Below are positions 6,206 through 48,565 of a DNA stretch of 64,000 nucleotides, piece by piece. The notes below the pieces were generated by a model. That model saw only the letters and a list, made by a program, of their open reading frames with translations, did not search any database and was not told the origin of the DNA. The stretch covers positions 3,720,001-3,784,000 of the forward strand of contig NC_047018.1 in the NCBI RefSeq assembly GCF_902652985.1. Reading direction: 5' to 3'. Source of the stretch: Pecten maximus (taxonomy: Eukaryota). The position numbers were made by a program, and so were the translations under genes. Each line of letters starts with the position of its first letter. Position 1 is the stretch's first letter.

Positions 6206-6314
6206 CAATTACACAATGGAACCTCCTCCCGCTAGCAGCAGTACAGTGCACCACACTAGAAGGCTTCAAGGCACACATACCACACTCAGTCCTTGAACCC
6301 CTCATAAACAAACA

Positions 6315-13284: not shown

Positions 13285-15269
13285 ATGAATGGTGTCACAG
13301 GAACTCTACTCCTATTGAGCGTCCCGGTTCTAGCCAGCTTCTTTTGGAGCATTGATGGACGGACAATAAAGAGGGCAGGCGATAAGTATGATTCGGGGGG
13401 TATTTCAGATTAATACGTTTTCTTCAAAATATCGTGATTTAGAAGCAAATATCATTATCTGCAAATTGTTTATTACAATTTGAAATATGTAATGCTGTTA
13501 AGGTGGATTTTCTCCTCACCGTGCAGATAAATGGGTTGTATATTGTACTATAATAGGGCATGTGATATCTATAGCTTACATTTACTGCGATGTATTATTC
13601 TTTAGCTCCAACTGGTGTTGCGAAATAGAACCACAAAACACGACGAGTAATTTTACCTCGATAGAAATACACCAGTTCACGAAGGTGATATGGGAGGAGA
13701 TAGAAATCCCTGAGCACCGGTGTACGTATGGCGAGGAGGCGACAGTCGGACCGATAGGATTTTACTGCACTGGTAAAAAGAACGTGTCCAGGTCAGCTAT
13801 TTACCAAATCTTTGTAAACATCGAGAACACCTTAATGTCATTACTGTTACTAAATATTAGAACACCTGAATGTCATAACTGTTACTAAATATTAGAACAC
13901 CTGAATGTCATTACTGTTACTAAATATTAGAACACCTGAATGTCATTACTGTTACTAAATATTAGAACACCTGAATGTCATTACTGTTACTAAATATTAG
14001 AACACCTGAATGTCATAACTGTTACTAAAATATTAGAACACCTGAATGTCATTACTGTTACTAAATATAGAACACCTGAAGTCAGTCTTCACTTAAATAG
14101 TGAACACCTGATTCATTTATCTGTCACTAAATACTAGAACACCTGAATGTCATTACTGTTACTAAATATTAGAACACCTGAATGTCATTACTGTTACTAA
14201 ATACTAGAACACCTGAATGTCATTACTTTAACCAAATACTAGAACACCTGAATGTCATTACTGTTACTAAATATTAGAGCACCTGAATGTCATTACTGTT
14301 ACTAAATATTAGAACACCTGAATGTCATTACTGTTACTAAATATTAGAACACCTGAATGTCATTACTGTTACTAAATATTACAACACCTGAATGTCATTA
14401 CTGTTACTAAATATTACAACAACTGAATGTCATTACTGTTACTAAATATTACAACACCTGAATGTCATTACTGTAACCAGATATTAGCATATTCATTGGT
14501 TCACCTACTGTTTACTTCACATAGAACAATTGCGTCTGATTTTCTGCTACGGAATACACACTTTTGTTTTCTAAAATGTGTTCGATCGTGTCCGACTAAA
14601 GAAAAGTCGTTAATTTGAGAAGGTACGAGTTAACTTGTTAAACTAGACCAGTTTGGTGATACATATTAGTGCAATTGTAAAGTTTGACGTTTCTTCTCTT
14701 GATAAGAACTATCGCCGTTGGAAAAACCTTTCATCAGGACATTTGCAACGTTTTGAATGAAATCTTGCACACTGGCAAAGTTCCTTACCTTTCTTTATAT
14801 GCTATACATTTAGCTGTGGAAGAATGATTTGTTTTCATTCCACGGCGTATTTTTTGTACACAGGATGGTGGTCAGATACGTACAGGTGCCCGTGGTAAAG
14901 CCCCTCATACAACAGGGGGTGTGTCCCACGGAACATGTGGTGTGTTGCGAGGGCTACACCAAACAACAGGACCAGTGTCTAAGTAAGTTGTAGATACACA
15001 TCAAAAAGCGTGTTTTGCTGTTAAAAAAATAAATAAAAATTAAACGTATGTTATCAAAACGCTTAAAACAAAAACCTATAATATTGCAATTTTGTTGGTC
15101 TTGTAAAAGAAAGGTCTTGATATTTATTTATTTATTTGACCGTAATCGACTGCGATAGACATGCTTTTCTTGTCGTAATTGATAATCTTATTGAAGCAAA
15201 CTTGCTCCTACAGAATCCTCTGCTGTTGACTCCCTCCAGGCCCTCATCGATGCGGGATTGGTTGGATAA
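13285..15269 (+). CDS. Secreted 8-Cys EMI-like preproprotein A, about 153 aa
   Basis: Exons 13285-13385, 13606-13791, 14864-14982, 15214-15269 (intron phases 2,2,1). MNGVTGTLLLLSVPVLASFFWSIDG-RTIKR-AGDNSNWCCEIEP...HRCTY...FYCTG...GVCPTEHVVCCEGYTKQQDQCLKSSAVDSLQALIDAGLVG*. AATAAA at 15312. Confidence 0.85.
13823..14475. repeat. 35-bp minisatellite, ~18 copies, in intron 2 of gene A
   Basis: Unit agaacacctgaatgtcattactgttactaaatatt. Confidence 0.95.
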
Positions 15270-16389
15270 GGACTGATGACCAATTATCTATAAATCCTTA
15301 TACATAATATAAATAAAAACAAGTATATAAGGTTTATGTTTTGTTGTCATTCCATGTCATAAAATAACATTGTACGTGTATTAGACTACATATTCGTGAA
15401 GGAATTGAAGTCCGTGTTGTAGTTTTACATCCGTCCTGTATCGTATAGCGGGTGCTATGAGACGGGGACCTCATTTGACCACGATGTAATTATCATTTTT
15501 ATGTCATCGCTTCATTGGGAAAGTAATGACTTAGATGTTCAAACTGACGTTAGGAAAGCGAAAACAGCATAATGGTGGTATATATATTAAAACGTAAATG
15601 TAAATAAGTAATGTTATAAAGTGTTTTTATTGCTAACAGAGAAACATAAAACATTGGCGGGTGTACTTAATGAAAATGATGATGTTATGGTCAAAATAAC
15701 AATTACAACACAAGAAGCAATGCATTTCCAAGTTTAAAAAAAGTTGAACAGCACCAATGAGGGTGTAACAAACGTCATCATACAAAATCACTTGAGTAAG
15801 AATATACTGAGTTAGTTATAGGGATATATATGGCGAGGATCTGTCGCTACTCGATATTCTAATCATGATATAGATGATTTTCATTCCTATTTAAGTTCTC
15901 CACATTGAAATTCATTTTTCGGAATTAGTCAAGTAGTATTTCAGATGTTATAAAACTTCGAGATCAGCATTCAAACATACTTTAAGTACCTATTGATTTT
16001 ATGTTATTTCGCTAGTAAATAATTCAGCAAGAATGTTAAGGATTTCAACCTTAACGCTGGTTAGAATAAACAACCGTATAATGTCTAGCGTGAATATAAC
16101 GATATCACAGCTTATCATTACAAACAAAAACAAAAAAACAAGTTGCTTGTATGGGGAATTCTTTATAATATTCACAGGTATTACTTATTTTGATCACATC
16201 ACTTCATTGGATCCAACCAAAGGAAACATAAGGACACGTGGATAAAGTCTCAACGTTTGTGCTTTGCTAGCTTTAGTGAACATGTGACCGATGCTAGGAC
16301 ACAGATTATTTTATCTAGTACAGTTCTCGGTTCGAAGAAAGGTTAACCCGATAGTGAGTTCTGTCTGTTTGATTCCATAGATATCAAAC

Positions 16390-18353
16390 ATGGGCGACAT
16401 GTTGAGATTTAATTTGATGCTTGCTGCTTTACTTGTATGCCTTCCATCTTTTTTATTGGAGTCAGTACTACACGATGAATCAACGATGTTTGGAAATTTG
16501 AAGTATGATTCCCTGCCGGACCACGTGAAAGAAGTCTTGCGTGAAAGTAGAGCCTCTGGGGATGAATCGTAAATATAATATAACATTATTACTAGATTAT
16601 TATAATTATGTGACTAAGCGTACGTGTTATTTATTTATTTATTTATTTATTTTTGTGATCTCATGTTGGACCCGGGTCTGTTCAATTGAGTATAATCGGG
16701 AAATATGTACATTTACGTAGATGTCTCAGGCTGATTGTATTCGCTGACTATACTTTTGTCTTTTAGAGCTCATTGGTGTTGTAAGATCAATCCAACCAAA
16801 ACCATAGTGGATTCACGAACCGTGTCTGTGACAGTAGTCGTTCCAGTAAGACACACCCATTCTAAAAGTTGTGGGTTTTTATGGACTAAAAGATGCACCT
16901 CGACCTCTTACACGACTGGGTTAGTCTACTGAAAAGTATTTTTTACAGGTTTATGGTCAGAAATAACCTGTAATAAGTAATTATGTTGATTTCTAAAGTA
17001 GAAATGATGATAATGATGAATCCACACGGATAATTTCCTGTTTGTTATAACTACACTGAATGATACATTCATACTTTGTTACAGTTAATTAATGACACAA
17101 TCATACTTTGTTACAGTTAATTAATGACACAATCATACTTTGTTACAGTTAATTAATGATACAATCATACTTTGTTACAGTTAATTAATGGTACATTCAT
17201 ACTTTGTTACAGTTAATTAATGGTACAATCATACTTTGTTACAGTTAATTAATGACACAATCATACTTTGTTACAGTTAATTAATGACACAATCATACTT
17301 TGTTACAGTTAATAAATGACACAATCATACCTTGTTACAGTTAATTAATGGTAAATCATACTTTGTTACAGTTAATTAATGGTACAATCATACTTTGTTA
17401 CAGTTAATTAATGGTACAATCATACTTTGTTAAGCTTTATTAATGACACAATTATACGTTATTACAGTTAATTGATGATACAATCATACCTTGTTAAGCT
17501 TTATTAATGACACAATTATACGTTATTACAGTTAATTGATGATACAATCATACTTTGTTGCAGTTAAATAATGATATCATGATTCCCATTCAAAGTAGAT
17601 TCTATGAAACGCGTTGATTTCCATTGATAAAGTACTTGATAATAATAATAATGGTTATAATGAAAAAATATACTGGTTATGACTAAAGGTACAGGAGAGC
17701 GTACAAGGCGACCTACACCAGCAGACTGGTACCCACCACCTGTCCAGATGAACATCTAGTGTGTTGTAAGGACTTCATCAAAGTCGCGGATCAGTGCTTG
17801 CGTAAGTCAAGATTGTTAACAAAATATCCACTACAAGTTAGGATTACGATTTTATCAAATAAAAAATATATTGATCCACCTATATTACATGGTATTACAT
17901 GGTATTACATGATATTACATGTTATTACATAGTATTACATAATAGTACTTGATATTACATGTTATTACATAGTATTACGTGGTATCATATATTATTACAT
18001 AGTATTACGTGGTATTACATAGTATTACATAAAATTACATAGTATTACATGGTAGTACATAGTATTGCGTGGTATCATGTATTATTACATAGTATTACGT
18101 GGTATTACATAATCATTATTTAGAGTAATTAATGTTCCTGTCATTGAAATAGTGTAACTGTAAGGAGGTTTTATGTTTTACGTTTTAGATATTTTTTTTT
18201 ATATAACCCGAATTGTTTTTTATCTGACAATTATCATAAAGGTATCATAAAGATATAACGTAACTTAATTACATTGTTTCAGCTCAAAATCGACTCACTG
18301 ACATTAAGGATGACTTGCTGAAGTTGCACGACGCAGGAATAGTTATTGGGTAA
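16390..18353 (+). CDS. Secreted 8-Cys EMI-like preproprotein B, about 171 aa
   Basis: Exons 16390-16568, 16767-16919, 17689-17801 (alternative in-frame acceptor at 17695), 18283-18353 (phases 2,2,1). Signal peptide, then YDSLPDHVKEVLRESRASGDESAHWCCK...SCGFLWTKRCT...YRRAYK...TCPDEHLVCCKDFIKVADQCLP...DDLLKLHDAGIVIG*. AATAAA at 18376. Confidence 0.88.
17055..17570. repeat. 32-bp minisatellite, ~16 copies, in intron 2 of gene B
   Basis: Unit caatcatactttgttacagttaattaatgaca. Confidence 0.95.
17880..18110. repeat. 10-bp minisatellite in intron 3 of gene B
   Basis: Unit gtattacat(a/g). Confidence 0.9.
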
Positions 18354-18604
18354 ACTCCAAGATATCAACTGATTAAATAAACATATTGAACTGTTAATGT
18401 TGTGGTTTTTTTTTGTGTCGAGTTCATTCAACAACACTCGTTTATCTATACACTAATATTATCGGGTTTTAATTGATTTGAGTAATGACACGTTTCAGAA
18501 CATCTTTTACAATCATGGGAATATTGTACCTTTATATCTAGATTTCGACCTATTGACATATTCTGTGGTTCTTCAGTCACCTAGTAATCAGTGCTTTAGG
18601 CTTT

Positions 18605-18866
18605 TGGCATCATGACGAGTTCTAGAATGCAGAAACAGCTGTATGATGTCCCTGACATCACTTACAAGTCATACACAGAATAAATAGCTGTATGATGTCC
18701 CTAACAGCACTGAAGACTCCTAGAAGGATGAATCAGCTGTATGATGTCCCTAACATCACTGACGTGTCCTAGAAGGAAGGACTAAACAGTAGAATGATAT
18801 CCAAAATATCACTGATTAGTCTTAGGAGGACGAATTAGATGTATGATAACCCTAACATCACTGATA
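18605..18866 (+). repeat. Hammerhead-ribozyme satellite, block 1 (~6 degenerate 49-bp units)
   Basis: Recurrent cagctgtatgatgtccctaacatcactga. Catalytic cores are mutated in all copies here. Confidence 0.8.
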
Positions 18867-18887
18867 TATACTAAGTTAACTATACCA

Positions 18888-20026: not shown

Positions 20027-20036
20027 AACTATACCA

Positions 20037-20640: not shown

Positions 20641-20644
20641 TGTC

Positions 20645-21440: not shown

Positions 21441-21446
21441 GATAAT

Positions 21447-24370: not shown

Positions 24371-25395
24371 AATAATAATAATGGTCTTTATTTATACTTG
24401 ATAACATGTTGAGCTTAAAAACTCGTCTTACACATGGTCAAGATAAGTAATAGAATATACAATATTTACAACATATAAAAGAATAATACTATAACATTAA
24501 ACAAGGCACATATGATATAAAATACAAGATAATTTTGGAGCTGCCATTAAATGTAAAGGATAAAAGTACAACTACATCAGGATTACAGATTACTCCATAA
24601 AAAAGTTCTTTGCTGCTTTCTTAAAAGATAAAAGTGTTGAACAGTTTCTCACATTACTTGGTAAAAGATTCCATGTGTGAGCTCCTTGATATTTAAAAGA
24701 CTTTTTGAAAGTATTTGTATTGTGAGATGGTAAGTAAAAAACATTTGTGGTTGAGAATCTGGTAGACCTACAATGGACATCAGATATGCTAGTAAAACAA
24801 TTTAAATTTTGTGGAGCTAGGTCGTTAAGTACATGTATCTTGTACATAAAACAGACTGACTATATAAATCCTTTTTCTAAAAGGCAGCCATTTTAGTAAT
24901 TTAAACATGTCATTAGATGGAGTTAAAAAGTCACAATTTAAAATAATTCTGGCTGCTCTCTTCTGAAGACGCTCCAACTTAACAATATTCTTTTTTGTAC
25001 TATTGCCCCAGACAGTAGCACAGTAGTCAATATGAGGATTGATAAAACAGTTAAAAATAAAAAATCGTAATACTGGAAGTCTGGCTTAAAATGGTCTTAT
25101 CTTTTTCATTTGAAAAATTTGACATGAGATTTTTCTACATACATTTGAGAACTGGTAATCCCAAGACATACAATCATCAACTGATTCTCCTAACAGCTTT
25201 TCGTGTTTTACATTTTCTATATTTACATTGTTGATGACAGATAGTTCACCTTTTAATTTACATTTCCTCTGTGAGGTAGAAGCAAGCATAGCTTTGGTTT
25301 GGTCAGGATTAATACACATTTTGTTAACATCACACCATGATGAAACTGACTTGGCATCCTCATTGAGGTTTTTATTTATATCATCAATAGATTTC
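24371..25395 (-). mobile_element. 5'-truncated L2/CR1-group LINE (RT C-terminus and 3' tail)
   Basis: INPDQTKAML..., EKLLG..VDD.MSW, PHIDYCATVWGN, KKSFKYQGAHTWNLLP..VRNC.TL.SFKK. AATAAA then an (ATT)n tail on the - strand. Confidence 0.85.
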
Positions 25396-25532
25396 AGCTG
25401 TAGAAACAGCTGTATGGTGTCCCTAACATTACTGGTGAGTCCTTAAAGGACGAAACAGCTGTATGGTGTCGCTAACATTACTGATGAGTCGTAGAAGGAC
25501 GAAACAGCTGTATGGTGTCCCCAACATTACTG
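25395..25532 (+). ncRNA. Hammerhead array block 4; near-intact copy at 25475-25518
   Basis: acatta-CTGATGA-gtc(gtagaag)gac-GAAA-cagctg-TA-tggtgt. The preceding unit has the mutated core CTGGTGA. Confidence 0.82.
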
Positions 25533-27454: not shown

Positions 27455-30400
27455 CATAGTATTATCCTTAGTATAACTATATCAGTATATTAACACTATT
27501 ATCATTATTATAACTATATCAGTATATTAACACTATTATCATTATTATAACTATATCAGTATATTAACACTATTATCATTAGTATAACTATATCAGTATA
27601 TTAACACTATTATCATTATTATAACTATATCAGTATATTAACACTATTATCATCAGTATAACTATATCAGTATCGTCACACTATTATCCTTAGTATAACT
27701 ATATCAGTATATTAACATTATTATCATTAGTATAACTATATCAGTATATTAACACTATTATCATTAGTATAACTATATCAGTATATTAACACTATTATCA
27801 TCAGTATAACTATATCAGTATATTAACACTATTATCCTTAGTATAACTATATCAGTATATTAACTCTATTATCATTATTATAACTATATCAGTATCGTCA
27901 CTCTATTATCATTATTATAACTATATCAGTATCGTCACACTATTATCATTAGTATAACTATATCAGTATATTAACACTATTATCATTAGTATAACTATAT
28001 TAGTATATTAACACTATTATCATTAGTATAACTATATCAGTATCGTCACTCTATTATCATTATTATAACTATATCAGTATATTAACACTATTATCATTAG
28101 TATAACTATATCAGTATCGTCACACTATTATCCTTAGTATAACTATATCAGTATATTAACACTATTATCATTATTATAACTATATCAGTATATTAACACT
28201 ATCATCCTTAGTATAACTATATCAGTATATTAACACTATTATCATTAGTATAACTATATCAGTATATTAACACTATCATCCTTAGTATAACTATATCAGT
28301 ATATTAACACTATTTATATTAACACTATTATCATTAGTATAACTATATCAGTATATTAACACTATTTATATTAACACTATTATCATTAGTATAACTATAT
28401 CAGTATATTAACACTATTATCCTTAGTATAACTATATCAGTATATTAACACTATTATCATTAGTATAACTATATCAGTATATTAACACTATTATCCTTAG
28501 TATAACTATATCAGTATATTAACACTATCATCCTTAGTATAACTATATCAGTATATTAACACTATTATCCTTAGTATAACTATATCAGTATATTAACACT
28601 ATTATCCTTATTATAACTATATCAGTATATTAACACTATTATCCTTAGTATAACTATATCAGTATATTAACACTATTATCATTATTATAACTATATCAGT
28701 ATCGTCACTCTATTATCATTAGTATAACTATATCAGTATATTAACACTATTATCATTAGTATAACTATATTAGTATATTAACACTATTATCATTAGTATA
28801 ACTATATCAGTATCGTCACTCTATTATCATTATTATAACTATATCAGTATATTAACACTATTATCATTAGTATAACTATATCAGTATATTAACACTATTT
28901 ATATTAACACTAATATAATTAGTATAACTATATCAGTATATTAACACTATTATCCTTAGTATAACTATATCAGTATATTAACACTATTATCATTAGCATA
29001 ACTATATCAGTATATTAACACTATTATCCTTAGTATAACTATATCAGTATCGTCACACTATTATCACTAGTATAACTATATCAGTATATTAACACTATTT
29101 ATATTAACACTATTATCCTTAGTATAACTATATCAGTATCGTCACACTATTATCATTAGTATAACTATATCAGTATATTAACACTAGTATCCTTAGTATA
29201 ACTATATCAGTATATTAACACTATTATCCTTAGTATAACTATATCAGTATATTAACACTATTATCCTTAGTATAACTATATCAGTATCGTCACACTATTA
29301 TCATTATTATAACTATATCAGTATATTAACACTATTATCCTTAGTATAACTATATCAGTATATTAACACTATCATCCTTAGTATAACTATATCAGTATAT
29401 TAACACTATTATCCTTAGTATAACTATATCAGTATATTAACACTATTTATATTAACACTATTATCATTAGTATAACTATATCAGTATCGTCACACTATTA
29501 TCATTAGTATAACTATATCAGTATATTAACACTATTTATATTAACACTATTATCATTAGTATAACTATATCAGTATATTAACACTAGTATCCTTAGTATA
29601 ACTATATCAGTATATTAACACTATTATCATTAGTATAACTATATCAGTATATTAACACTATCATCCTTAGTATAACTATATCAGTATATTAACACTATTA
29701 TCATTAGTATAACTATATCAGTATATTAACACTATCATCATTAGTATAACTATATCCGTATATTAACACTATTATCATTAGTATAACTATATCAGTATAT
29801 TAACACTATCATCATTAGTATAACTATATCCGTATATTAACACTATTATCATAAGTATAACTATATCAGTATATTAACACTATTATCATTAGTATAACTA
29901 TATCAGCATATTAACACTATTATCCTTAGTATAACTATATCAGTATATTAACACTATTATCATTAGTATAACTATATCAGTATATTAACACTATTATCAT
30001 TAGTATAACTATATCAGTATATTAACACTATTATCCTTAGTATAACTATATCAGTATCATCACACTATTATCATCAGTATAACTATATCAGTATATTAAC
30101 ACTATTATCCTTAGTATAACTATATCAGTATATTAACACTATTATCATTAGTATAACTATATCAGTATATTAACACTATCATCATTAGTATAACTATATC
30201 CGTATATTAACACTATAATCATAAGTATAACTATATCAGTATATTAACACTATTATCATAAGTATAACTATATCAGTATATTAACACTATTATCATTAGT
30301 ATAACTATATCAGTATATTAACACTATTATTATTAGTATAACTATATCAGTATATTAACACTATTATCATTAGTATAACTATATCAGTATATTAACACTA

Positions 30401-32030
30401 TCATCATTAGTATAACTATATCCGTATATTAACACTATTATCATAAGTATAACTATATCAGTATATTAACACTATTATCATTAGTATAACTATATCAGTA
30501 TATTAACACTATCATCCTTAGTATAACTATATCAGTATATTAACACTATTATCATTAGTATAACTATATCAGCATATTAACACTATCATCCTTAGTATAA
30601 CTATATCAGTATATTAACACTATTATCATTAGTATAACTATATCAGTATATTAACACTATGATCATCAGTATAACTATATTAGTATATTAACACTATTAT
30701 CCTTAGTATAACTATATCAGTATATTAACACTATTATCATTAGTATAACTATATCAGTATATTAACACTATTATCCTTAGTATAACTATATCAGTATATT
30801 AACACTATTATCCTTAGTATAACTATATCAGTATATTAACACTATTATCATTAGTATAACTATATCAGTATATTAACACTATTATCATTAGTATAACTAT
30901 ATCAGTATCGTCACACTATTATCCTTAGTATAACTATATCAGTATATTAACACTATTATCATTATTATAACTATATCAGTATATTAACACTATCATCCTT
31001 AGTATAACTATATCAGTATATTAACACTATTATCCTTAGTATAACTATATCAGTATATTAACACTATTTTCCTTAGTATAACTATATCAGTATATTAACA
31101 CTATCATCATTAGTATAACTATATCAGTATATTAACACTATTTATATTAACACTATCATCCTTAGTATAACTATATCAGTATATTAACACTATTATCCTT
31201 AGTATAACTATATCAGTATATTAACACTATTTTCCTTAGTATAACTATATCAGCATATTAACACTATCATCCTTAGTATAACTATATCAGTATATTAACA
31301 CTATTATCCTTAGTATAACTATATCAGTATATTAACACTATTATCCTTAGTATAACTATATCAGTATATTAACACTATCATCCTTAGTATAACTATATCA
31401 GTATCGTCACTCTATTATCATTATTATAACTATATCAGTATATTAACACTATTATCATTAGTATACCTATATCAGTATATTAACACTATCATCCTTAGTA
31501 TAACTATATCAGTATATTAACACTATTATCATTAGTATAACTATATCAGCATATTAACACTATCATCCTTAGTATAACTATATCAGTATATCAACACTAT
31601 CATCCTTAGTATAACTATATCAGTATATTAACACTATTATCATTAGTATAACTATATCAGTATCATCACACTATTATCATTAGTATAACTATATCAGTAT
31701 CGTCACACTATTATCATTAGTATAACTATATCAGTATATTAACACTATTATCATTAGTATAACTATATCAGTATATTAACACTATTATCATTAGTATAAC
31801 TATATCAGTATATTAACACTATTATCATTAGTATAACTATATCAGTATATTAACACTATTATCCTTAGTATAACTATATCAGTATCGTCACACTATTATC
31901 ATTAGTATAACTATATCAGTATATTAACACTATTATCCTTAGTATAACTATATCAGTATCGTCACACTATTATCATTAGTATAACTATATCAGTATCGTC
32001 ACACTATTATCATTAGTATAACTATATCAG
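27455..32030. repeat. 37-bp minisatellite, ~120 copies
   Basis: Unit tattatcattagtataactatatcagtatattaacac. Confidence 0.97.
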
Positions 32031-33091
32031 GGAGACATATTGACATTATACGTGGATTATAAAGAGCAGAAAACTATGTTTTCGAAAAGGTTTCTTCCAT
32101 TAAATTCGGACCGTTAGTATTTTTCACTATGTACACCACCGAGGGAAACTGGAGGGACTCCTTCGCTCTGATTAAAAAAAAAAAAAAAACTTTCAATGGA
32201 ATTCCTGCATATGTTGTTCTGGGTGTGTTTTCTTTTAATTGTGCCACTTTTCCATATTAACAATATATCTGTTAGAATTAGTGCAAGTGAAACACTAGAT
32301 ATACAGTATAATAAAAACATTATTAAAAATAGTTTTGAAGAACACATTACGGTATTATAAGTAGATGAAATTCTTGTTACTTGATTAATGACAATGACTA
32401 TCAATGTGTCTCGATTCTAAAGGATAAGGGGATCCTGTTTTATAGGACTAATGTTGGTCCGCTTTGATCATCATTGAGATTCCTAATAAAAGACTGCTGA
32501 AACAAACATATCCCCAAAGACATGTCGATAGAACGTGTGGACACTTATTTTCCTACCAGCAGTATGATACGTTATCAAAATATATAGTTATTAAGAAAAT
32601 AATGTTATGTTTCGAAGAATTTCTTGAATCATACGAGACATACCTGGTACTTTATTATTATAATGTTTGTATTCAATGGAGGGATTTAAACAAGTTTCCG
32701 AAAGTATTTTAGATATGTTGGCAATCGCTGGTCTCCATAAACATAATGATCATTTAAACGCCAAGCAAAAACCATTTTCATACGAAACTATCGCTATATA
32801 ATATAGGTGGACTGAACGACTATGGTTGTAGAGTAGTTAAACACGATTTTAAAAGTAAAAATACCTTAAACTGAAGTATCCGCCCGCAATAAACAAATGT
32901 TTGGTGAACATACACCCCTAATATTTTATTTGGTTATTGGTGTTGTTACTAACCTTGATAACATTGTTAACTACTGACAGAAGTGAACCTGTGTAATGGG
33001 CTCTCCTGATGTAAAATACATCCTATCCATTACGCTGAGTCCTCATCTCTATATGGCAAGCAAAACAGACCATCCATATTTGACGATTTGA

Positions 33092-36000
33092 CCCTGTCCG
33101 AGACCTTCTGACAATATAACTACCCGTCCGAGACCTTCAGACAATATAACTACCCGTCCGAGACCTTCAGACAATATAACTACCCGTCCGAGACCTTCAG
33201 ACAATATAACTACCCGTCCGAGACCTTCAGACAATATAACTACCCGTCCGAGACCTTCAGACAATATAACTACCCGTCCGAGACCTTCAGACAATATAAC
33301 TACCCGTCCGAGACCTTCAGATAATATAACTACCCGTCCGAGACCTTCACACAATATAACTACCCGTCCGAGACCTTCACACAATATAACTACCCGTCCG
33401 AGACCTTCACATAATATAACTACCCGCCCGAGACATTAAGATAATACAACTACCCGTCCGAGACATTAAGATAATACAACTACCCGTCCGAGACATTAGA
33501 TAATATAACTACCCGTCCGAGACCTTCAGACAATATAACTACCCGTCCGAGACCTTAGATAATATAACTACCCGTCCGAGACCTTAGATAATATAACTAC
33601 CCGTCCGAGACATTAAGATAATACAACTACCCGTCCGAGACATTAAGATAATACAACTACCCGTCCGAGACCTTAGATAATATAACTACCCGTCCGAGAC
33701 CTTCAGACAATATAACTACCCGTCCGAGACCTTAGATAATATAACTACCCGTCCGAGACCTTAGATAATATAACTACCCGTCCGAGACATTAAGATAATA
33801 CAACTACCCGTCCGAGACATTAAGATAATACAACTACCCGTCCGAGACCTTCACATAATATAACTACCCGCCCGAGACATTAAGATAATACAACTACCCG
33901 TCCGAGACCTTAGATAATATAACTACCCGTCCGAGACCTTAGATAATATAACTACCCGTCCGAGACATTCAGACAAGATAACTACCCGTCCGAGACCTTC
34001 AGATAATATAACTACCCGTCCGAGACCTTCACACAATATAACTACTCGTCTGAGACCTTCAAATAATACAACTACCCGTCCGAGACCTTCAAATAATATA
34101 ACTACCCGTCCGAGACCTTCAAATAATACAACTACCCGTCCGAGACCTTCAAATAATACAACTACCCGTCCGAGACATTAAGATAATACAACTACCCGTC
34201 CGAGACCTTAGATAATATAACTACCCGTCCGAGACCTTCAGACAATATAACTACCCGTCCGAGACATTCAGATAATATAACTACCCGTCCGAGACTTTAG
34301 ATAATATAATTACCCGTCCGAGACCTTCAGATAATATAACTACCCGTCCGAGACCTTCAGATAATATAACTACCCGTCCGAGACCTTCACACAATATAAC
34401 TACCCGTCCGAGACCTTCAGATAATATAACTACCCGTCCGAGACCTTCAAATAATATAACTACCCGTCCGAGACCTTCAGACAATATAACTACCCGTCCG
34501 AGACCTTCACACAATATAACTACCCGTCCGAGACCTTCAGATAATATAACTACCCGTCCGAGACCTTCAGATAATATAACTACCCGTCCGAGACTTTAGA
34601 TAATATAACTACCCGTCCGAGACCTTCACACAATATAACTACCCGTCCGAGACCTTCAGATAATATAACTACCCGTCCGAGACCTTCAGATACTATAACT
34701 ACCCGTCCGAGACTTTAGATAATATAACTACCCGTCCGAGACTTTAGATAATATAACTACCCGTCCGAGACATTCAGATAATATAACTACCCGTCCGAGA
34801 CATTCAGACAATATAACTACCCGTCCGAGACCTTCAGACAATATAACTACCCGTCCGAGACCTTAGATAATATAACTACCCGTCCGAGACCTTCAGATAA
34901 TATAACTACCCGTCCGAGACCTTAGATAATATAACTACCCGTCCGAGACATTCAGACAATATAACTACCCGTCCGAGACCTTAGACAATATAACTACCCG
35001 TCCGAGACCTTAGATAATATAACTACCCGTCCGAGACCTTAGATAATATAACTACCCGTCCGAGACCTTCTGACAATGTAACTACCCGTCCGAGACCTTC
35101 TGACAATGTAACTACCCGTCCGAGACATTCAGACAATATAACAACCCGTCCGAGACCTTCAGATAATATAACTACCCGTCCGAGACCTTCAAATAATATA
35201 ACTACCCGTCCGAGACATTCAGATAATATAACTACCCGTCCGAGACCTTCAGACAATATAACTACCCGTCCGACACCTTCAGATAATATAACTACCCGTC
35301 CGAGACCTTAGATAATATAACTACCCGTCCGAGACCTTCAGATAATATTACTACCCGTCCGAGACCTTCAGATAATATAACTACCCGTCCGTGACTTTCA
35401 GATAATATAACTACCCGTCCGAGACCTTAGATAATATAACTACCCGTCCGAGACCTTCTGACAATGTAACTACCCGTCCGAGACATTCAGACAATATAAC
35501 AACCCGTCCGAGACCTTCACACAATATAACTACCCGTCCGAGACCTTCTGACAATGTAACTACCCGTCCGAGACCTTCACACAATATAACTACCCGTCCG
35601 AGACCTTAGATAATATAACTACCCGTCCGAAACCTTCAGACAATATAACTACCCGTCCGAGACCTTCAGACAATATAACTACCCGTCCGAGACCTTAGAC
35701 AATATAACTACCCGTCCGAGACCTTCAGACAATGTAACTACCCGTCCGAGACCTTCAGATAATATAACTACCCGTCCGAGACCTTCACACAATATAACTA
35801 CCCGTCCGAGACCTTCAGACAATATAACTACCCGTCCGAGACCTTAGATAATATAACTACCCGTCCGAGACCTTAGATAATATAACTACCCGTCCGAGAC
35901 ATTAAGATAATACAACTACCCGTCCGCGACATTAAGATAATACAACTACCCGTCCGAGACCTTAGATAATACAACTACCCGTCCGAGACCTTCACATAAT

Positions 36001-39000
36001 ATAACTACCCGCCCGAGACATTAAGATGATACAACTACCCGTCCGAGACCTTAGATAATATAACTACCCGTCCGAGACCTTAGATAATATAACTACCCGT
36101 CCGAGACATTCAGACAAGATAACTACCCGTCCGAGACCTTCAGATAATATAACTACCCGTCCGAGACCTTCACACAATATAACTACTCGTCCGAGACCTT
36201 CAAATAATACAACTACCCGTCCGAGACCTTCAAATAATATAACTACCCGTCCGAGACCTTCAAATAATACAACTACCCGTCCGAGACCTTCAAATAATAC
36301 AACTACCCGTCCGAGACATTAAGATAATACAACTACCCGTCCGAGACCTTAGATAATATAACTACCCGTCCGAGACCTTCAGACAATATAACTACCCGTC
36401 CGAGACATTCAGATAATATAACTACCCGTCCGAGACTTTAGATAATATAATTACCCGTCCGAGACCTTCAGATAATATAACTACCCGTCCGAGACCTTCA
36501 GATAATATAACTACCCGTCCGAGACCTTCACACAATATAACTACCCGTCCGAGACCTTCAGATAATATAACTACCCGTCCGAGACCTTCAAATAATATAA
36601 CTACCCGTCCGAGACCTTCAGACAATATAACTACCCGTCCGAGACCTTCACACAATATAACTACCCGTCCGAGACCTTCAGATAATATAACTACCCGTCC
36701 GAGACCTTCAGATACTATAACTACCCGTCCGAGACTTTAGATAATATAACTACCCGTCCGAGACTTTAGATAATATAACTACCCGTCCGAGACATTCAGA
36801 TAATATAACTACCCGTCCGAGACATTCAGACAATATAACTACCCGTCCGAGACCTTCAGACAATATAACTACCCGTCCGAGACCTTAGATAATATAACTA
36901 CCCGTCCGAGACCTTCAGATAATATAACTACCCGTCCGAGACCTTAGATAATATAACTACCCGTCCGAGACATTCAGACAATATAACTACCCGTCCGAGA
37001 CCTTAGACAATATAACTACCCGTCCGAGACCTTAGATAATATAACTACCCGTCCGAGACCTTAGATAATATAACTACCCGTCCGAGACCTTCTGACAATG
37101 TAACTACCCGTCCGAGACCTTCTGACAATGTAACTACCCGTCCGAGACATTCAGACAATATAACAACCCGTCCGAGACCTTCAGATAATATAACTACCCG
37201 TCCGAGACCTTCAAATAATATAACTACCCGTCCGAGACATTCAGATAATATAACTACCCGTCCGAGACCTTCAGACAATATAACTACCCGTCCGACACCT
37301 TCAGATAATATAACTACCCGTCCGAGACCTTAGATAATATAACTACCCGTCCGAGACCTTCAGATAATATTACTACCCGTCCGAGACCTTCAGATAATAT
37401 AACTACCCGTCCGTGACCTTCAGATAATATAACTACCCGTCCGAGACCTTAGATAATATAACTACCCGTCCGAGACCTTCTGACAATGTAACTACCCGTC
37501 CGAGACATTCAGACAATATAACAACCCGTCCGAGACCTTCACACAATATAACTACCCGTCCGAGACCTTCTGACAATGTAACTACCCGTCCGAGACCTTC
37601 ACACAATATAACTACCCGTCCGAGACCTTAGATAATATAACTACCCGTCCGAAACCTTCAGACAATATAACTACCCGTCCGAGACCTTCAGACAATATAA
37701 CTACCCGTCCGAGACCTTAGACAATATAACTACCCGTCCGAGACCTTCAGACAATGTAACTACCCGTCCGAGACCTTCCGATAATATAACTACCCGTCCG
37801 AGACCTTCACACAATATAACTACCCGTCCGAGACCTTCACACAATATAACTACCCGTCCGAGACCTAAGACAATACAACTACCCGTCCGAGACCTTAGAT
37901 AATATAACTACCCGTCAGAGACCTTAGATAATATAACTACCCGTCCGAGACCTTCAGACAATATAACTACCCGTCCGAGACCTTCAAACAATATAACTAC
38001 CCGTCCGAGACCTTAGATAATATAACTACCCGTCCGAGACCTTCAAACAATATAACTACCCGTCCGAGACCTTCAGACAATATAACTACTCGTCCGAGAC
38101 CTTCACACAATATAACTACCCGTCCGAGACCTTAGATAATATAACTACTCGTCCGAGACCTTAGATAATATAACTACCCGTCCGAGACCTTCTGACAATG
38201 TAACTACCCGTCCGAGACCTTAGATAATATAACTACCCGTCCGAGACCTTCAGACAATATAACAACCCGTCCGAGACCTTCAGACAATATAACTACCCGT
38301 CCGAGACATTCAGACAATATAACTACTCGTCCGAGACATTCAGACAATATAACTACCCGTCCGAGACCTTCAGATAATATAACTACCCGTCCGAGACCTT
38401 CACACAATATAACTACCCGTCCGACACCTTCAGATAATATAACTTCCCGTCCGAGACCTTCAGACAATATAACTACCCGTCCGAGACCTTAGATAATATA
38501 ACTACCCGTCCGAGACATTCAGATAATATAACTACCCGTCCGAGACCTTAGATAATATAACTACCCGTCCGAGACCTTCACACAATATAACTACCCGTCC
38601 GAGACCTTCAGATAATATAGCTACCCGTCCGAGACATTCAGACAATATAACTACCCGTCCGAGACCTTAGACAATATAACTACCCGTCCGAGACCTTAGA
38701 TAATATAACTACCCGTCCGAGACCTTCTGACAATGTAACTACCCGTCCGAGACCTTCTGACAATGTAATTACCCGTCCGAGACATTCAGACAATATAACA
38801 ACCCGTCCGAGACCTTCAGATAATATAACTACCCGTCCGAGACCTTCAAATAATATAACTACCCGTCCGAGACATTCAGATAATATAACTACCCGTCCGA
38901 GACCTTCAGACAATATAACTACCCGTCCGACACCTTCAGATAATATAACTACCCGTCCGAGACCTTAGATAATATAACTACCCGTCCGAGACCTTCAGAT

Positions 39001-40260
39001 AATATTACTACCCGTCCGAGACCTTCAGATAATATAACTACCCGTCCGAGACCTTCAGATAATATAACTACCCGTCCGAGACCTTAGATAATATAACTAC
39101 CCGTCCGAGACCTTCTGACAATGTAACTACCCGTCCGAGACATTCAGACAATATAAGAACCCGTCCGAGACCTTCACACAATATAACTACCCGTCCGAGA
39201 CCTTCTGACAATGTAACTACCCGTCCGAGACCTTCACACAATATCACTACCCGTCCGAGACCTTAGATAATATAACTACCCGTCCGAAACCTTCAGACAA
39301 TATAACTACCCGTCCGAGACCTTCAGACAATATAACTACCCGTCCGAGACCTTAGACAATATAACTACCCGTCCGAGACCTTCTGACAATATAACTACCC
39401 GTCCGAGACCTTCAGACAATATAACTACCCGTCCGAGACCTTCAGACAATATAACTACCCGTCCGAGACCTAAGACAATATAACTACCCGTCCGAGACCT
39501 TAGATAATATAACTACCCGTCAGAGACCTTAGATAATATAACTACCCGTCCGAGACCTTCAGACAATATAACTACCCGTCCGAGACCTTCAAACAATATA
39601 ACTACCCGTCCGAGACCTTAGATAATATAACTACCCGTCCGAGACCTTCAGACAATATAACTACCCGTCCGAGACCTTCAGATAATATAACTACCCGTCC
39701 GAGACCTTCAGACAATATAACTACCCGTCCGAGACCTTCAGACAATATAACTACCCGTCCGAGACCTTAGATAATATAACTACCCGTCCGAGACCTTCAC
39801 ACAATATAACTACCCATCCGAGACCTTAGATAATAAAACTACCCGTCCGAGACCTTCAGGCAATATAACTACCCGTCCGAGACATTCAGACAATATAACT
39901 ACCCGTCCGAGATCTTCAGATAACATAACTACCCGTCCGACACCTTCAGATAACATAACTACCCGTCCGAGACCTTCAGACAATATAACAACCCGTCCGA
40001 GACCTTCACACAATATAACTACCCGTCCGAGACCTTCTGACAATGTAACTACCCGTCCGAGACCCTCACACAAAATAACTACCCGTCCGAGACCTTCACA
40101 CAATATAACTACCCATCCGAGACCTTCAGATAATATAACTACCCGTCCGAGACCTTCAGATAATATAACAACCTGTCCGAGACCTTAGATAATATAACTA
40201 CCCGTCCGAGACCTTCAGACAATATAACTACCCGTCCGAGACCTTCAGATAATATAACAA
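33092..40260. repeat. 29/30-bp minisatellite, ~240 copies, with higher-order duplications
   Basis: Unit aactacccgtccgagaccttcagacaatat. Accounts for all the EGLGRVVILS ORFs. Confidence 0.97.
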
Positions 40261-41190: not shown

Positions 41191-44100
41191 TCATCCTAGA
41201 AGTCCAGCAGCCTGTAGCTTGAGGAGAGAATCAGTGAGAGAGCTCAGGTAATGGCCGTCCGCCGCTGTGGAGAAATGTTCAAAAACATTAATAAGTAGTA
41301 TGGAAATCAAAGGATTGGTCTAGCTTTAGGCACGAAGTGTTAAAATCTTTACTACATTGTATTAATGTATAGGTCATATGTGCATGTGCATAACTCGTGT
41401 CAGTAGAAAACCATTATAAAACGGTTATTGCGAGAGCGATCTGTATTGGCAATGATTCATTGTCACATTTGGTAAAATAAGATGTCAAATATTCACAAGA
41501 ATCCTGATCACATTATCCTCATTAAACGAAAAATTCTATTATCGTTTTTAATCTCAGAAAACAACAGTTTCTGGCCTACCCAAGCAATTATCAGCGGCAA
41601 GCACGAAGCCGTTACAACATGTGATCTGCTGGTCTGGACAGGCGCCCTTGTTAGGGACGAGCTGGGTATCGATGTAGGTGATCAACTTCTCACTGTATTG
41701 AAGAAAAGTAAGATGGTGATGGAACACAACAAAATAAGTATGTAACACACACAATGTAAACATTCTACATCTCGGTCATATTGATCTATGATCGACTCAT
41801 TCACTTGGAATCATGAAAACAATGTCAGGGTCACTAAGTCTTCTTCCATAACAGTGTTTTTTTCTAATCGGAATAGGGGGAGCATAAAGATGTTTGACCT
41901 CTATTGTTGTCCTTACTGTTGGAAACCAGTCAGATTGTTAGTTACATGACATTAATTATTCGCAAGATGGTTGTCATGGTGACCAGGATTTTCATCGAGG
42001 TGGAAACAAATAATGAGAGGAGACGATGAGACTTGAAATGAAGAGTAAAACATACAAGCTTTTTAAAAAATTGTCTCTGATCAAATCAAAATCGCCAATT
42101 TGTGAAATTATGATGCTGCTTGTGAAATAATAAGTCGATTTAAAGGATGGAAAAAATGGAGTCATTTTTAAGGTTGATTTCTCTAATCTTGAAAAGAATC
42201 ATCTCTATTGAAAAATCAAGTACACAATTTTACACAAAGGCAAAGTGCCTAACATTTCATTACGTTACGGCATAATCGGTGTTTGCCTAATGAGCGTATT
42301 AAACGCTTTTGGACTAAATCTGCGAATAGCAAATACTGATGTTTATGGAATGACGTACACATATTGTATATTGGTAGTCTCGCATGTCTTGGTGTTCAGA
42401 AATCCACATCCGTCCTGTGTGTGAACCTGGACCGACTCTTTGATGGTGTGGGCTGCGATCTTTGACACCGTTGTGGTGTTAACTACCTGGTCAGCACCGT
42501 TCTTACAGCACCAGTTACTGTAACATATAACGATAGACACATCACCAGTTACTGTAACATATAACGATAGACACATCACCAGTTACTGTAACATATAGAC
42601 ACATCACCAGTTACTGTAACACATAGACACATCACCAGTTACTGTAACATATAGACACATCACCAGTTACTGTAACATATAGACACATCACCAGTTACTG
42701 TAACACATAGACACATCACCAGTTACTGTAACATATAGACACATCACCAGTTACTGTAACATATAGACACATCACCAGTTACTGTAACATATAGACACAT
42801 CACCAGTTACTGTAACATATAACGATAGACACATCACCAGTTACTGTAACACATAGACACATCACCAGTTACTGTAACATATAACGATAGACACATCACC
42901 AGTTACTGTAACATATAACGATAGACACATCACCAGTTACTGTAACATATAACGATAGACACATCACCAGTTACTGTAACATATAACGATAGACACATCA
43001 CCAGTTACTGTAACATATAACGATAGACACATCACCAGTTACTGTAACATATAACGATAGACACATCACCAGTTACTGTAACATATAGACACATCACCAG
43101 TTACTGTAACATATAACGATAGACACATCACCAGTTACTGTAACATATAGACACATCACCAGTTACTGTAACATATAACGATAGACACATCACCAGTTAC
43201 TGTAACATATAGACACATCACCAGTTACTGTAACATATAGACACAGCACCAGTTAATGTAACATATAGACACAGCACCAGTTAATGTAACATATAACGAT
43301 AGACACATCACCAGTTACTGTAACATATAACGATAGACACATCACCAGTTACTGTAACATATAACGATAGACACATCACCAGTTACTGTAACATATAACG
43401 ATAGACACATCACCACTTACTGTAACACATAAACACATCACCAGTTACTGTAACATATAGACACATCACCAGTTACTGTAACATATAACGATAGACACAT
43501 CACCAGTTACTGTAACATATAACGATAGACACATCACCAGTTACTGTAACATATAACGATAGACACATCACCAGTTACTGTAACATATAGACACATCACC
43601 AGTTACTGTAACATATATAACGATAGACACATCACCAGTTACTGTAACATATAACGATAGACACATCACCAGTTACTGTAACATATAACGATAGACACAT
43701 CACCAGTTACTGTAACATATAACGATAGACACATCACCAGTTACTGTAACATATAACGATAGACACATCACCAGTTACTGTAACATATAACGATAGACAC
43801 ATCACCAGTTACTGTAACATATAACGATAGACACATCACCAGTTACTGTAACATATAACGATAGACACATCACCAGTTACTGTAACATATAACGATAGAC
43901 ACATCACCAGTTACTGTAACATATAACGAAATCACCAGTTACTGTAACATATAACGATAGACACATCACCAGTTACTGTAACATATAGACACATCACCAG
44001 TTACTGTAACATATAACGATAGACACATCACCAGTTACTGTAACATATAACGATAGACACATCACCAGTTACTGTAACATATAACGATAGACACATCACC

Positions 44101-47100
44101 AGTTACTCTAACATATAGACACATCACCAGTTACTGTAACATATAACGATAGACACATCACCAGTTACTGTAACATATAGACACATCACCAGTTACTGTA
44201 ACATATAACGAAATCACCAGTTACTGTAACATATAACGAAATCACCAGTTACTGTAACATATAACGAAATCACCAGTTACTGTAACATATAACGATAGAC
44301 ACATCACCAGTTACTGTAACATATAGACACATCACCAGTTACTGTAACATATAACGACAGCACCAGTTACTGTAACATATAACGATAGACACATCACCAG
44401 TTACTGTAACATATAACGATAGACACATCACCAGTTACTGTAACATATAACGATAGACACATCACCAGTTACTGTAACATATAACGACATCACCAGTTAC
44501 TGTAACATATAGACACATCACCAGTTACTGTAACATATAACGATAGACACATCACCAGTTACTGTAACATATAGACACATCACCAGTTACTGTAACATAT
44601 AACGATAGACACATCACCAGTTACTGTAACATATAGACACATCACCAGTTACTGTAACATATAACGATAGACACATCACCAGTTACTGTAACATATAGAC
44701 ACATCACCAGTTACTGTAACATATAACGACATCACCAGTTACTGTAACATATAACGATAGACACAGCACCAGTTACTGTAACATATAGACACATCACCAG
44801 TTACTGTAACATATAGACACATCACCAGTTACTGTAACATATAGACACATCACCAGTTACTGTAACACATAGACACATCACCAGTTACTGTAACATATAG
44901 ACACATCGCCAGTTACTGTAACATATAGACACATCACCAGTTACTGTAACATATAACGATAGACACATCACCAGTTACTGTAACATATAACGATAGACAC
45001 ATCACCAGTTACTGTAACATATAACGATAGACACATCACCAGTTACTGTAACATATAACGATAGACACATCACCAGTTACTGTAACATATATACACATCA
45101 CCAGTTACTGTAACATATAGACACATCACCAGTTACTGTAACATATAGACACATCACCAGTTACTGTAACATATAGACACATCACCAGTTACTGTAACAT
45201 ATAGACACATCACCAGTTACTGTAACATATAGACACATCACCAGTTACTGTAACATATAGACACATCACCAGTTACTGTAACATATAGACACATCACCAG
45301 TTACTGTAACATATAGACACATCACCAGTTACTGTAACATATAACGATAGACACATCACCAGTTACTGTAACATATAACGATAGACACATCACCAGTTAC
45401 TGTAACATATAACGACATCACCAGTTACTGTAACATATAACGATAGACACATCACCAGTTACTGTAACATATAGACACATCACCAGTTACTGTAACATAT
45501 AGACACATCACCAGTTACTGTAACATATAACGACATCACCAGTTACTGTAACATATAACGATAGACACATCACCAGTTACTGTAACATATAGACACATCA
45601 CCAGTTACTGTAACATATAACGATAGACACATCACCAGTTACTGTAACATATAGACACATCACCAGTTACTGTAACATATAGACACATCACCAGTTACTG
45701 TAACATATAACGATAGACACATCACCAGTTACTGTAACATATAGACACATCACCAGTTACTGTAACATATAACGATAGACACATCACCAGTTACTGTAAC
45801 ATATAGACACATCACCAGTTACTGTAACATATAACGATAGACACATCACCAGTTACTGTAACATATAACGATAGACACATCACCAGTTACTGTAACATAT
45901 AACGATAGACACATCACCAGTTACTGTAACATATAACGATAGACACATCACCAGTTACTGTAACATATAGACACATCACCAGTTACTGTAACATATAACG
46001 ATAGACACATCACCAGTTACTGTAACATATAGACACATCACCAGTTACTGTAACATATAACGATAGACACATCACCAGTTACTGTAACATATAACGATAG
46101 ACACATCACCAGTTACTGTAACATATAACGATAGACACATCACCAGTTACTGTAACATATAACGATAGACACATCACCAGTTACTGTAACATATAGACAC
46201 ATCACCAGTTACTGTAACATATAACGATAGACACATCACCAGTTACTGTAACATATAACGATAGACACATCACCAGTTACTGTAACATATAACGATAGAC
46301 ACATCACCAGTTACTGTAACATATAACGATAGACACATCACCAGTTACTGTAACATATAACGATACACACATCACCAGTTACTGTAACATATAACGATAT
46401 ACACATCACCAGTTACTGTAACATATAACGATAGACACATCACCAGTTACTGTAACATATAACGATAGACACATCACCAGTTACTGTAACATATAACGAT
46501 AGACACATCACCAGTTACTGTAACATATAGACACATCACCAGTTACTGTAACATATAACGACATCACCAGTTACTGTAACATATAGACACATCACCAGTT
46601 ACTGTAACATATAACGATAGACACATCACCAGTTACTGTAACATATAGACACATCACCAGTTACTGTAACATATAACGATAGACACATCACCAGTTACTG
46701 TAACATATAGACACATCACTAGTTACTGTAACATATAGACACATCACCAGTTACTGTAACATATAGACACATCACCAGTTACTGTAACATATAACGATAG
46801 ACACATCACCAGTTACTGTAACATATAGACACATCACCAGTTACTGTAACATATAGACACATCACCAGTTACTGTAACATATAACGATAGACACATCACC
46901 AGTTACTGTAACATATAGACACATCACCAGTTACTGTAACATATAACGATAGACACATCACCAGTTACTGTAACATATAGACACATCACCAGTTACTGTA
47001 ACATATAACGACATCACCAGTTACTGTAACATATAGACACATCACCAGTTACTGTAACATATAGACACATCACCAGTTACTGTAACATATAACGATAGAC

Positions 47101-48565
47101 ACATCACCAGTTACTGTAACATATAACGATAGACACATCACCAGTTACTGTAACATATATAACGATAGACACATCACCAGTTACTGTAACATATAGACAC
47201 ATCACCAGTTACTGTAACATATAACGATAGACACATCACCAGTTACTGTAACATATAGACACATCACCAGTTACTGTAACATATAACGATAGACACATCA
47301 CCAGTTACTGTAACATATAACGATAGACACATCACCAGTTACTGTAACATATAGACACATCACCAGTTACTGTAACATATAACGATAGACACATCACCAG
47401 TTACTGTAACATATAGACACATCACCAGTTACTGTAACATATAACGATAGACACATCACCAGTTACTGTAACATATAGACACATCACCAGTTACTGTAAC
47501 ATATAACGATAGACACATCACCAGTTACTGTAACATATAGACACATCACCAGTTACTGTAACATATAGATACATCACCAGTTACTGTAACATATAGACAC
47601 ATCACCAGTTACTGTAACATATAGACACAGCACCAGTTACTGTAACACATAGACACATCACCAGTTACTGTAACATATAACGATAGACACATCACCAGTT
47701 ACTGTAACATATAACGATAGACACATCACCAGTTACTGTAACATATAGACACATCACCAGTTACTGTAACATATAGACACATCACCAGTTACTGTAACAT
47801 ATAGACACATCACCAGTTACTGTAACATATAGACTCATCACCAGTTACTGTAACATATAGACTCATCACCAGTTACTGTAACATATAGACACATCACCAG
47901 TTACTGTAACATATAGACACATCACCAGTTACTGTAACATATAGACACATCACCAGTTACTGTAACATATAACGAAATCACCATATACTTCAAGTCAGCC
48001 ATAGACAAAGATATCACAGAATTCCCTTTTTGTTAGTTCTGTACTCTATATCAAAAACCGATAGATTTGATATGCAAATTAAGCAGTAATTCTAACTACA
48101 TTATGTAAGCGCAAAATATAAACAATGACTGAGATTCAACTGGACTTCTGGTCTAGTGAGACTGGCAGGCTATTTGTGACAATTCGTTATTATGGTAGTG
48201 AAAACGCAGCGGTCAGCTGTAGAATATATATCACATCATATGGATATCTAAATTCCGTGCATCTATAGTGTATGCTAAGTTAAATGTTTAGATAGCTTCT
48301 GTATACTTTGCATGTTGTCATTCCTATATAAGGTGTTAGACATAAAGCACTCTAAGTGTTCAATAACTGATCATTATATATATATACTGAACCTGCTATC
48401 GCCCATTTTCTTCCCTCTTTTCAGCATCAGCTGCAGGTGTCGGGGTAGCTGGTCATAGTGCACACTGGCCAATAAATCCAGCTCAGCTTGTGTATAAACA
48501 CGGGACTCCGAAACACCCCAGAGTGCCAACACTATCACAATCTGTACCAAAAACAATTTATACAT
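41191..48565 (-). CDS. Secreted 8-Cys EMI-like preproprotein C, about 172 aa
   Basis: Exons 48393-48565, 42359-42517, 41580-41692, 41191-41264 (phases 2,2,1). MYKLFLVQIVIVLALWGVSES...YDQLPRHLQLMLKRGKKMGDSSNWCCK...GCGFLNTKTCE...ACPDQQITCCNGFVLAADNCLAADGHYLSSLTDSLLKLQAAGLLG*. TATTTAAA about 50 bp upstream; AATAAA on the - strand at about 41119-41124. Confidence 0.88.
42510..47985. repeat. 28/34-bp minisatellite, ~175 copies, filling intron 1 of gene C; the unit contains the splice acceptor
   Basis: Unit accagttactgtaacatata(acgata)gacacatc, which on the - strand reads ...tatgttacag|TAACTGGTG. Confidence 0.97.

Follow-up and report, generated by a model that had tools for sequence, protein, structure and literature searches.

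The EMI domain is described as carrying seven Cys residues at regular positions, or six in MMRN1 and MEGF10, and as ending in a WRCCPG(Y/F)xGxxC consensus; the consulted portions of the same source characterize EMI domains as self-interacting or multimerizing, the proteins that bear them as matrix multimers, and the EMI domain of EMILIN1 as interacting with proTGF-β (PMC3342094). Phosphatidylserine binding has been predicted for EMI domains in another account (PMC13751773). Here we describe three genes, named A, B, and C, in a 64,000-nucleotide stretch of the scallop Pecten maximus genome (C4:3720001-3784000, hereafter the window), whose secreted products belong to a real, deeply conserved and previously undescribed family that is EMI-like rather than a member of the EMI family.

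Genes A, B, and C and the family they belong to

The models of A, B (also termed B1), and C, which encode 153, 171, and 172 residues, respectively, were built from the window by motif scanning and manual exon assembly. Each is an intact four-exon gene with GT-AG at every intron and intron phases 2/2/1 (Table 1); exon 3 is 113 nt long in B and C and 119 nt in A. A hydrophobic N-terminus and a terminal Gly are common to all three proteins, and their mature parts contain eight Cys each in the order CC-C-C-CP-CC-C, the ninth Cys of B being located in the signal peptide. They match each other at BLASTP E-values of 3e-10 to 4e-25 with 27–34% identity and are letter-identical to the database proteins P0012, P0001, and P0006, respectively; the matching entries are the uncharacterized P. 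maximus loci LOC117325000, LOC117325001, and LOC117325002. With a profile of 59 non-scallop homologs, A reaches 65 bits, B 134, and C 136, and five exons reach 30–45 bits; in 10 shuffled windows, the score never exceeds 10 bits. The three four-exon genes with these phases, eight Cys and terminal Gly, which the initial annotation of the window had put forward, are thus upheld by both the models and the database identity.

Among 24 listed sequencing runs, 11 from four studies contain part of the A/B stretch, and we compared contigs from four runs, one per study, only one of which is recorded as RNA, the RNA nature of the other three being a guess. The successive junctions of A are bridged exactly as modeled in contigs of 4/4, 4/4, and 3/4 runs, and those of B in 4/4, 4/4, and 2/4 runs; a contig of one run has poly(A) downstream of B, after position 18392. 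For C, the exon 2-3 junction is bridged in all four runs and the exon 3-4 junction in two, and in three of the four runs the loose end of a contig past exon 2 is the end of exon 1, one such contig having no differences from C exon 2. All nine splice junctions are therefore supported by RNA contigs, and A, B, and C are confirmed as real, spliced, and transcribed genes. Exon 4 of the paralog C' (see below) is also present in one run. Two further contig structures were observed. In two runs, the contig with the spliced exons of A extends several hundred bases upstream of position 13100, across the promoter between A and the neighboring gene X; this extension is unexplained and could be a long 5' leader, an overlap with the X transcript, or a contig join. 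In one run, a C'-like exon 2 is joined to C-type exons 3-4, which could represent a recombinant allele or result from the path taken in assembly.

A HMMER search with a profile of 15 scallop sequences against 1.84 billion representative proteins retrieved 94 protein clusters at E ≤ 1e-3, including four from scallops, and 47 at E ≤ 1e-10. We looked up 32 of the 90 non-scallop hits; the 26 that are named are all spiralian and all annotated as 'uncharacterized,' 'unnamed,' or 'hypothetical,' and since the other 58 hits are of unassigned origin, restriction of the family to Spiralia is not proven. Members from mollusks belong to oysters, a mussel, and the chiton Liolophura, and those from other phyla to the annelid Owenia, the nemerteans Lineus and Tubulanus, the bryozoans Bugula and Watersipora, and the rotifers Rotaria and Seison; no arthropod was found among the named members. 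There is no Pfam model for the family, and the literature searched yielded no published description of it, with the proviso that the supplements of bioRxiv 10.64898/2026.03.09.710468 might list oyster members as cell-type markers. The nearest clusters by language-model features are from mollusks (0.92) and rotifers (0.89), followed by EMI/EGF clusters (0.78), the last being a lead only. Most members consist of a single domain; among the 67 scanned proteins (of the 90 non-scallop profile hits), fused Link (Xlink) modules are present in two (P0020 and P0021), and two from Owenia contain three tandem copies of the family domain (P0019 and P0038), with tips that are basic rather than aromatic. The family search and the Pfam scans bear out that the family is uncharacterized and secreted, resembles EMI, and consists mostly of stand-alone proteins. 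The automatic UniRef name of P0015, hydrophobin, was rejected: hydrophobins have the Cys pattern C-CC-C-C-CC-C, whereas the order here is CC-C-C-C-CC-C, and none of the 15 scallop proteins has a hydrophobin match in Pfam.

In a tree of 28 rows with known taxa, three types unite scallop genes with genes of chiton, nemertean, or annelid origin, namely A (support 98/91), B (92/63), and D (80/85), a fourth type encoded outside the window; type C is resolved within bivalves only (91/94). A scallop-only clade was rejected by the approximately unbiased (AU) test (p = 0.0008). The type groups were first seen in a quick tree of 74 rows, and the 28-row tree is therefore no independent test of them. The chiton A, B, and D members lie on contigs of equal length, which we read as one chromosome, and the same reading applies to the nemertean A, B, and C-like members. 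Each of the types A, B, and D is represented in more than one phylum; the set of paralogs is thus ancient and not a young expansion, and the subunit types predate the split of mollusks, annelids, and nemerteans. The local, fast-diverging cluster of three effector genes pictured in the initial annotation is not supported in view of this spread. The divergence between Cys residues that it reported is real in so far as the sequences differ between paralogs, but the inter-Cys length is nearly fixed and counterparts of the cluster proteins in other scallops are 69–85% identical.

Predicted fold, processing motifs, and proposed function

The AlphaFold2 model of B based on 74 sequences has a mean predicted local distance difference test score (pLDDT) of 89, reaching approximately 96–98 in the hairpin, and a predicted template modeling score (pTM) of 0.56; with 15 sequences the topology is unchanged at a pLDDT of 72. 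It comprises signal and pro-helices, a long hairpin with strands at residues 70–95 and 101–126 (26 + 26 residues), a small base of strands and cysteines, and, at residues 150–165, a helix; by residue count, the hairpin is predicted to be approximately 85 Å long. Across 74 sequences, no variation is seen at six of the Cys, and the first two are kept in at least 90%. The Cys3-Cys4 loop has 7 residues in 59 of 74, and the Cys4-Cys5 interval has 25 residues in 51 of 74 and 27 in all 13 A-type proteins, the tips of which are mostly longer and acidic in 11 of the 13. Seven-residue tips occur in 51 of 63 non-redundant rows; Gly is the first residue in 47 of them, Phe or Trp occurs in 47, and Lys or Arg directly precedes Cys4 in 34. 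The return strand has conserved Tyr at several positions, and the net charge of the hairpin is +4 to +11 in B-type proteins (12/12) and −2 to −6 in scallop and oyster A. Two members (P0066 and P0094) lack both Cys3 and Cys4 and have a shortened arm, and this joint loss suggests that Cys3 is bonded to Cys4 and that the base is separable; we infer a disulfide that closes the tip. Structure searches with the models gave no significant match to a solved or viral structure. The top Foldseek rows, which were not significant, were the long stems found in oligomeric pores and rings, and no EMI-bearing structure was among the PDB matches listed.

The putative processing signals extend over the family. 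A terminal Gly followed by zero to four Lys or Arg residues (G[KR]0-4) ends 51 of 73 members, compared with a mean of 7 and a maximum of 16 in shuffles, and 40 of 62 when the scallop orthologs are left out, with Gly plus basic residues in 13. KR or RR is found within 18 residues before the first CC in 27 of 61 rows, five of the 61 being fragments matched at the wrong CC, vs. 9% of mature 18-mers. These family-wide motifs fit convertase cleavage and amidation, as had been suggested for the three cluster proteins.

We propose, with a probability of about 0.38, that these proteins are surface-binding and self-assembling, and act as an extracellular coat or in an opsonin-like manner. Judging from the family-wide motifs, a convertase cut at the basic site would remove the pro-helix and free the mature domain, and the terminal Gly would be converted to an amide that caps the C-terminal helix. 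The aromatic/basic tips of B, C, and D, carried on a hairpin predicted to be long and rigid, might grip membranes or anionic surfaces by inserting into lipid or binding polyanions, with microbes, food particles, and dying cells as the presumed targets. In the least secure step, the equal-length arms of sibling types would pair edge to edge, and their co-assembly would provide avidity; hints of it are that hairpin length is fixed, that linked types have long been retained together, and that A arms are acidic and B arms basic. What results would be a mucosal or extracellular coat that resembles an opsonin or agglutinin. The Link fusions and the triple copies in Owenia fit a displaying or multimerizing module and are counted in favor of such a coat, for which the self-interaction described for EMI domains (PMC3342094) and their predicted phosphatidylserine binding (PMC13751773) offer an analogy.

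Several observations weigh against the coat proposal. KR or RR is missing close to the mature start in 34 of 61 rows; a basic site precedes the mature part of the cluster proteins as annotated, but that of B is only R-x-x-R and not dibasic, and D has no clear site. Terminal Gly is absent from 22 of 73 members. Structural alignments pair residues ~38–55 with 150–171, and the pro-helix may thus stay packed on the C-terminal helix instead of being discarded. Since the pTM is only 0.56, the mutual placement of arm, base, and helices is uncertain; the column profile shows no alternating hydrophobic face on the strands, which are not cleanly amphipathic. The three repeats of the Owenia proteins do not sort into different types. 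Finally, the identity among scallops and the low divergence of C and C' (nonsynonymous divergence, dN, 0.035) do not look like those of a fast-evolving pathogen sensor.

A possible, if tentative, alternative is a structural polymer of matrix or mucus, such as cuticle, mucus, gut lining, or egg coat, in which the hairpins would stack edge to edge into fibers or sheets after removal of the pro-helix and the tip would be only a cross-linking patch. Most members lack low-complexity or repeat character, and the conserved aromatic/basic tip and amidation-type end, which are more typical of bioactive secreted proteins, point elsewhere. On the other hand, an arm that is long and two-stranded, with its edges free, its length fixed, and its composition rich in Tyr/Thr/Val, suits a polymer, as do the Link-module fusions, the presence of the family across soft-bodied spiralians, shelled or not, and the matrix multimers formed by EMI-bearing proteins (PMC3342094).

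We consider it doubtful that the family represents signaling ligands, i.e., processed and amidated Cys-rich hormones or growth-factor modulators, possibly heterodimeric, with a tip that binds a receptor or growth factor. The prepropeptide organization, in which basic cleavage sites are combined with Gly(-Lys/Arg) C-termini, the deep conservation of types, and the reported interaction of the EMILIN1 EMI domain with proTGF-β (PMC3342094) agree with this role; however, our own comparison revealed neither a cystine-knot nor an insulin spacing, hormones do not usually show lineage-specific extra copies or Link fusions, and the family motifs are absent from the text, pictures not included, of six supplements of a scallop ganglion neuropeptide catalog (PMC5996578).

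Two readings turn the hairpins into parts of a larger machine. An unlikely one is a pan-spiralian, convertase-activated assembly of dedicated subunits (acidic-tipped A and aromatic/basic-tipped B, C, and D), whose equal-length hairpins would zip into a barrel or fiber once the pro-helix is cut; the result would be a machine for membrane attack or coating that has not been described and was retained from before the mollusk/annelid/nemertean split. The other, a multi-subunit β-barrel pore formed by cleaved hairpins of several types, which would act as a digestive or defensive cytolysin with its tips entering the target membrane, is also improbable; convertase-type activation, fixed strand length, and a hydrophobic tip would serve it, and the Foldseek rows mentioned above and the ShK domain of the head-to-head neighbor X are in line with it.

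Whatever the function, types retained for so long imply a central task in the animals that have them, among them farmed scallops, oysters, and mussels. The family spans at least five spiralian phyla without a name, Pfam model, or solved fold, and its small, easily expressed proteins open lipid binding, assembly, and amidation to direct testing.

Duplicated block, intron array, and surroundings of the cluster

A second block, which holds X', A', B2, D, and C', is located 3.3 Mb away, at approximately C4:6.974-7.019 Mb, in the same order and orientation as the cluster in the window. Alignment between the blocks is limited to exons and short flanks (74–97%), besides the array in C intron 1, and comparison of 324 kb with 290 kb of gap-free sequence revealed no collinearity outside the duplicated block. 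A' (C4:6987407-6989080, locus L008) is broken by a one-base insertion and by deletions of 14 and 48 bases that take out Cys4 and Cys5; its exon 4 was searched for and not found. Intact counterparts of A' exist in Mizuhopecten and Ylistrum, where separate scaffolds also bear B1 and B2, and genome searches in P. maximus found no further intact family copies. B2 copies cluster by locus across species (98/95), and the two Mizuhopecten copies of A cluster by species (100/98), as do the two copies of C (97/98); grouping of C by locus was rejected (AU p = 0.002 and 0.001). Between C and C' (locus L011), synonymous divergence (dS) is 0.147 overall, 0 in exon 1, and 0.92 in exon 4. We read the two blocks as the probable result of an old duplication followed by exon-wise gene conversion, very old alleles being less likely as their source. 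The scallop duplicate block thus provides a clear case of apparent exon-wise concerted evolution, with C homogenized and B1/B2 diverged. Tandem repeats make up approximately 45% of both genomic regions; minisatellite arrays lie between B and C, and the equivalent place between B2 and C' holds gene D.

In intron 1 of C, a unit that comprises the 3' splice site and the first bases of exon 2 is repeated in tandem, giving 173 acceptor copies. The 172 decoys precede the true acceptor, which is the last one and is joined to exon 1 in the RNA contigs, and every decoy leads to a stop within 12 codons; since rare forms are lost from contigs, decoys may still be used at a low level. C' has 32 decoy acceptors, and gene D has 7 copies of its own exon-3 end and donor. 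'Mirage' minisatellites of amphioxus consist of an intron-exon boundary copied in tandem, with normal splicing preserved (PMC3087553). The C array shares both properties, a tandem unit across the boundary and retained splicing, and is a large case of this known kind, with 172 decoys in 5.5 kb compared with the 3–6 units of the amphioxus globin mirage (PMC3087553).

Gene X lies head-to-head with A, their start codons being 352 bp apart and each having a TATA sequence approximately 57 bases upstream. Its predicted product has a signal peptide, an Ala/Gly/Ser-rich hydrophobic stretch, a middle domain, and a C-terminal ShK domain (PF01549, 21.3 bits vs. a cut-off of 20.9). X was duplicated along with the cluster, and four of its exons have counterparts in the second block. 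Mobile-element and repeat features of the window are included in Table 1.

Table 1. Positions of genes and other features within the window
Feature	Position	Strand	Description
A exon 1	13285-13385	+	signal peptide, basic site IKR, no pro-helix
A exon 2	13606-13791	+	WCC, first hairpin strand, acidic 14-residue tip (Cys3 to Cys4)
A exon 3	14864-14982	+	second strand, base CP-x6-CC-x9-C
A exon 4	15214-15269	+	C-terminal helix, then Gly-stop
B exon 1	16390-16568	+	signal peptide, pro-helix, site RESR
B exon 2	16767-16919	+	WCC, first strand, aromatic/basic tip of 7 residues
B exon 3	17689-17801	+	113 nt; Tyr-rich second strand, Cys base
B exon 4	18283-18353	+	C-terminal helix, then Gly-stop
C exon 1	48393-48565	-	signal peptide, pro-helix, KR/KK site
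C exon 2	42359-42517	-	model and RNA contigs
C exon 3	41580-41692	-	113 nt; model and RNA contigs
C exon 4	41191-41264	-	C-terminal helix, then Gly-stop
'Mirage' minisatellite	42505-47975	-	~5.5 kb, C intron 1
Gene X	9122-12933	-	six predicted exons, 219 residues (model from sequence only)
Transposon-type gene	1868-3226	-	intact 452-codon frame; integrase core (Pfam rva_4, E 1.7e-36), weak HTH_21
Reverse-transcriptase/retroelement-like fragment	5617-6296	+	open reading frame list, by eye
Reverse-transcriptase/retroelement-like fragment	6792-7097	-	open reading frame list, by eye
Reverse-transcriptase/retroelement-like fragment	25086-25442	-	open reading frame list, by eye
Large minisatellite arrays	27460-40258, 49929-62404		units of 37, 30, 40, 47, and 42 bp

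Comparison with EMI domains and other known systems

Like the EMI domain of EMILINs/Multimerins and CED-1/Draper/MEGF10, the domain of the present family is secreted. It lies at the N-terminus, after the prepro part, but usually stands alone, with Link modules behind it in 2 of 67 proteins. Both domains have a Cys-closed loop, then a Tyr-rich strand and an end of the form CC-x-G-aromatic...C. This end is only partly kept, however: CC-x-G-Y/F is present (G in 45/63, aromatic in 92%), W-R and the second Gly position are not kept, and the spacing from CC to the last Cys is 9 in the family vs. 7 in EMI. In contrast to EMI, the family also has eight Cys, a leading CC, and an inserted CP-x6, and its mostly stand-alone proteins carry a pro-helix, a basic site, a C-terminal helix, and a Gly end. 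The Pfam EMI model (PF07546, gathering cut-off 25 bits) aligns over most of its length with 6 of 82 proteins at E-values of 0.16–0.94 and at best 13.2 bits, and has no match in A, B, and C themselves. Because of these below-threshold scores and the eight Cys, we do not file the family under EMI, and the 'EMI-only' label of the initial annotation, at odds also with the extra base Cys and the added pro-helix and C-terminal helix, was dropped. That the family is nothing distinct, being made up of ordinary EMI-domain proteins from which the downstream modules were lost, is very unlikely: the weak alignments and the EMI/EGF clusters next in language-model features would suit such remnants, but all scores are below the Pfam cut-off, Cys number and C-terminal spacing differ, EGF, collagen, and FAS1 domains occur in 0 of 67 scanned proteins, and the family has a pro-helix, a C-terminal helix, and types of its own. 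To judge by its sequence features, the family probably works like a detached EMI arm, failing EMI membership on score, Cys count, and consensus. EMI domains are structurally poorly resolved, and a stand-alone EMI-like hairpin would make them easier to model experimentally.

Nimrod B proteins consist of NIM/EGF-like repeats. The likeness of the family to Drosophila NimB4, described as a secreted relative of engulfment receptors that forms a soluble bridge to particles (PMC8419693), is one of the way of working only. A single, very long β-hairpin per subunit is also found in pores of the aerolysin, lysenin, and protective-antigen type and in the FliF ring.

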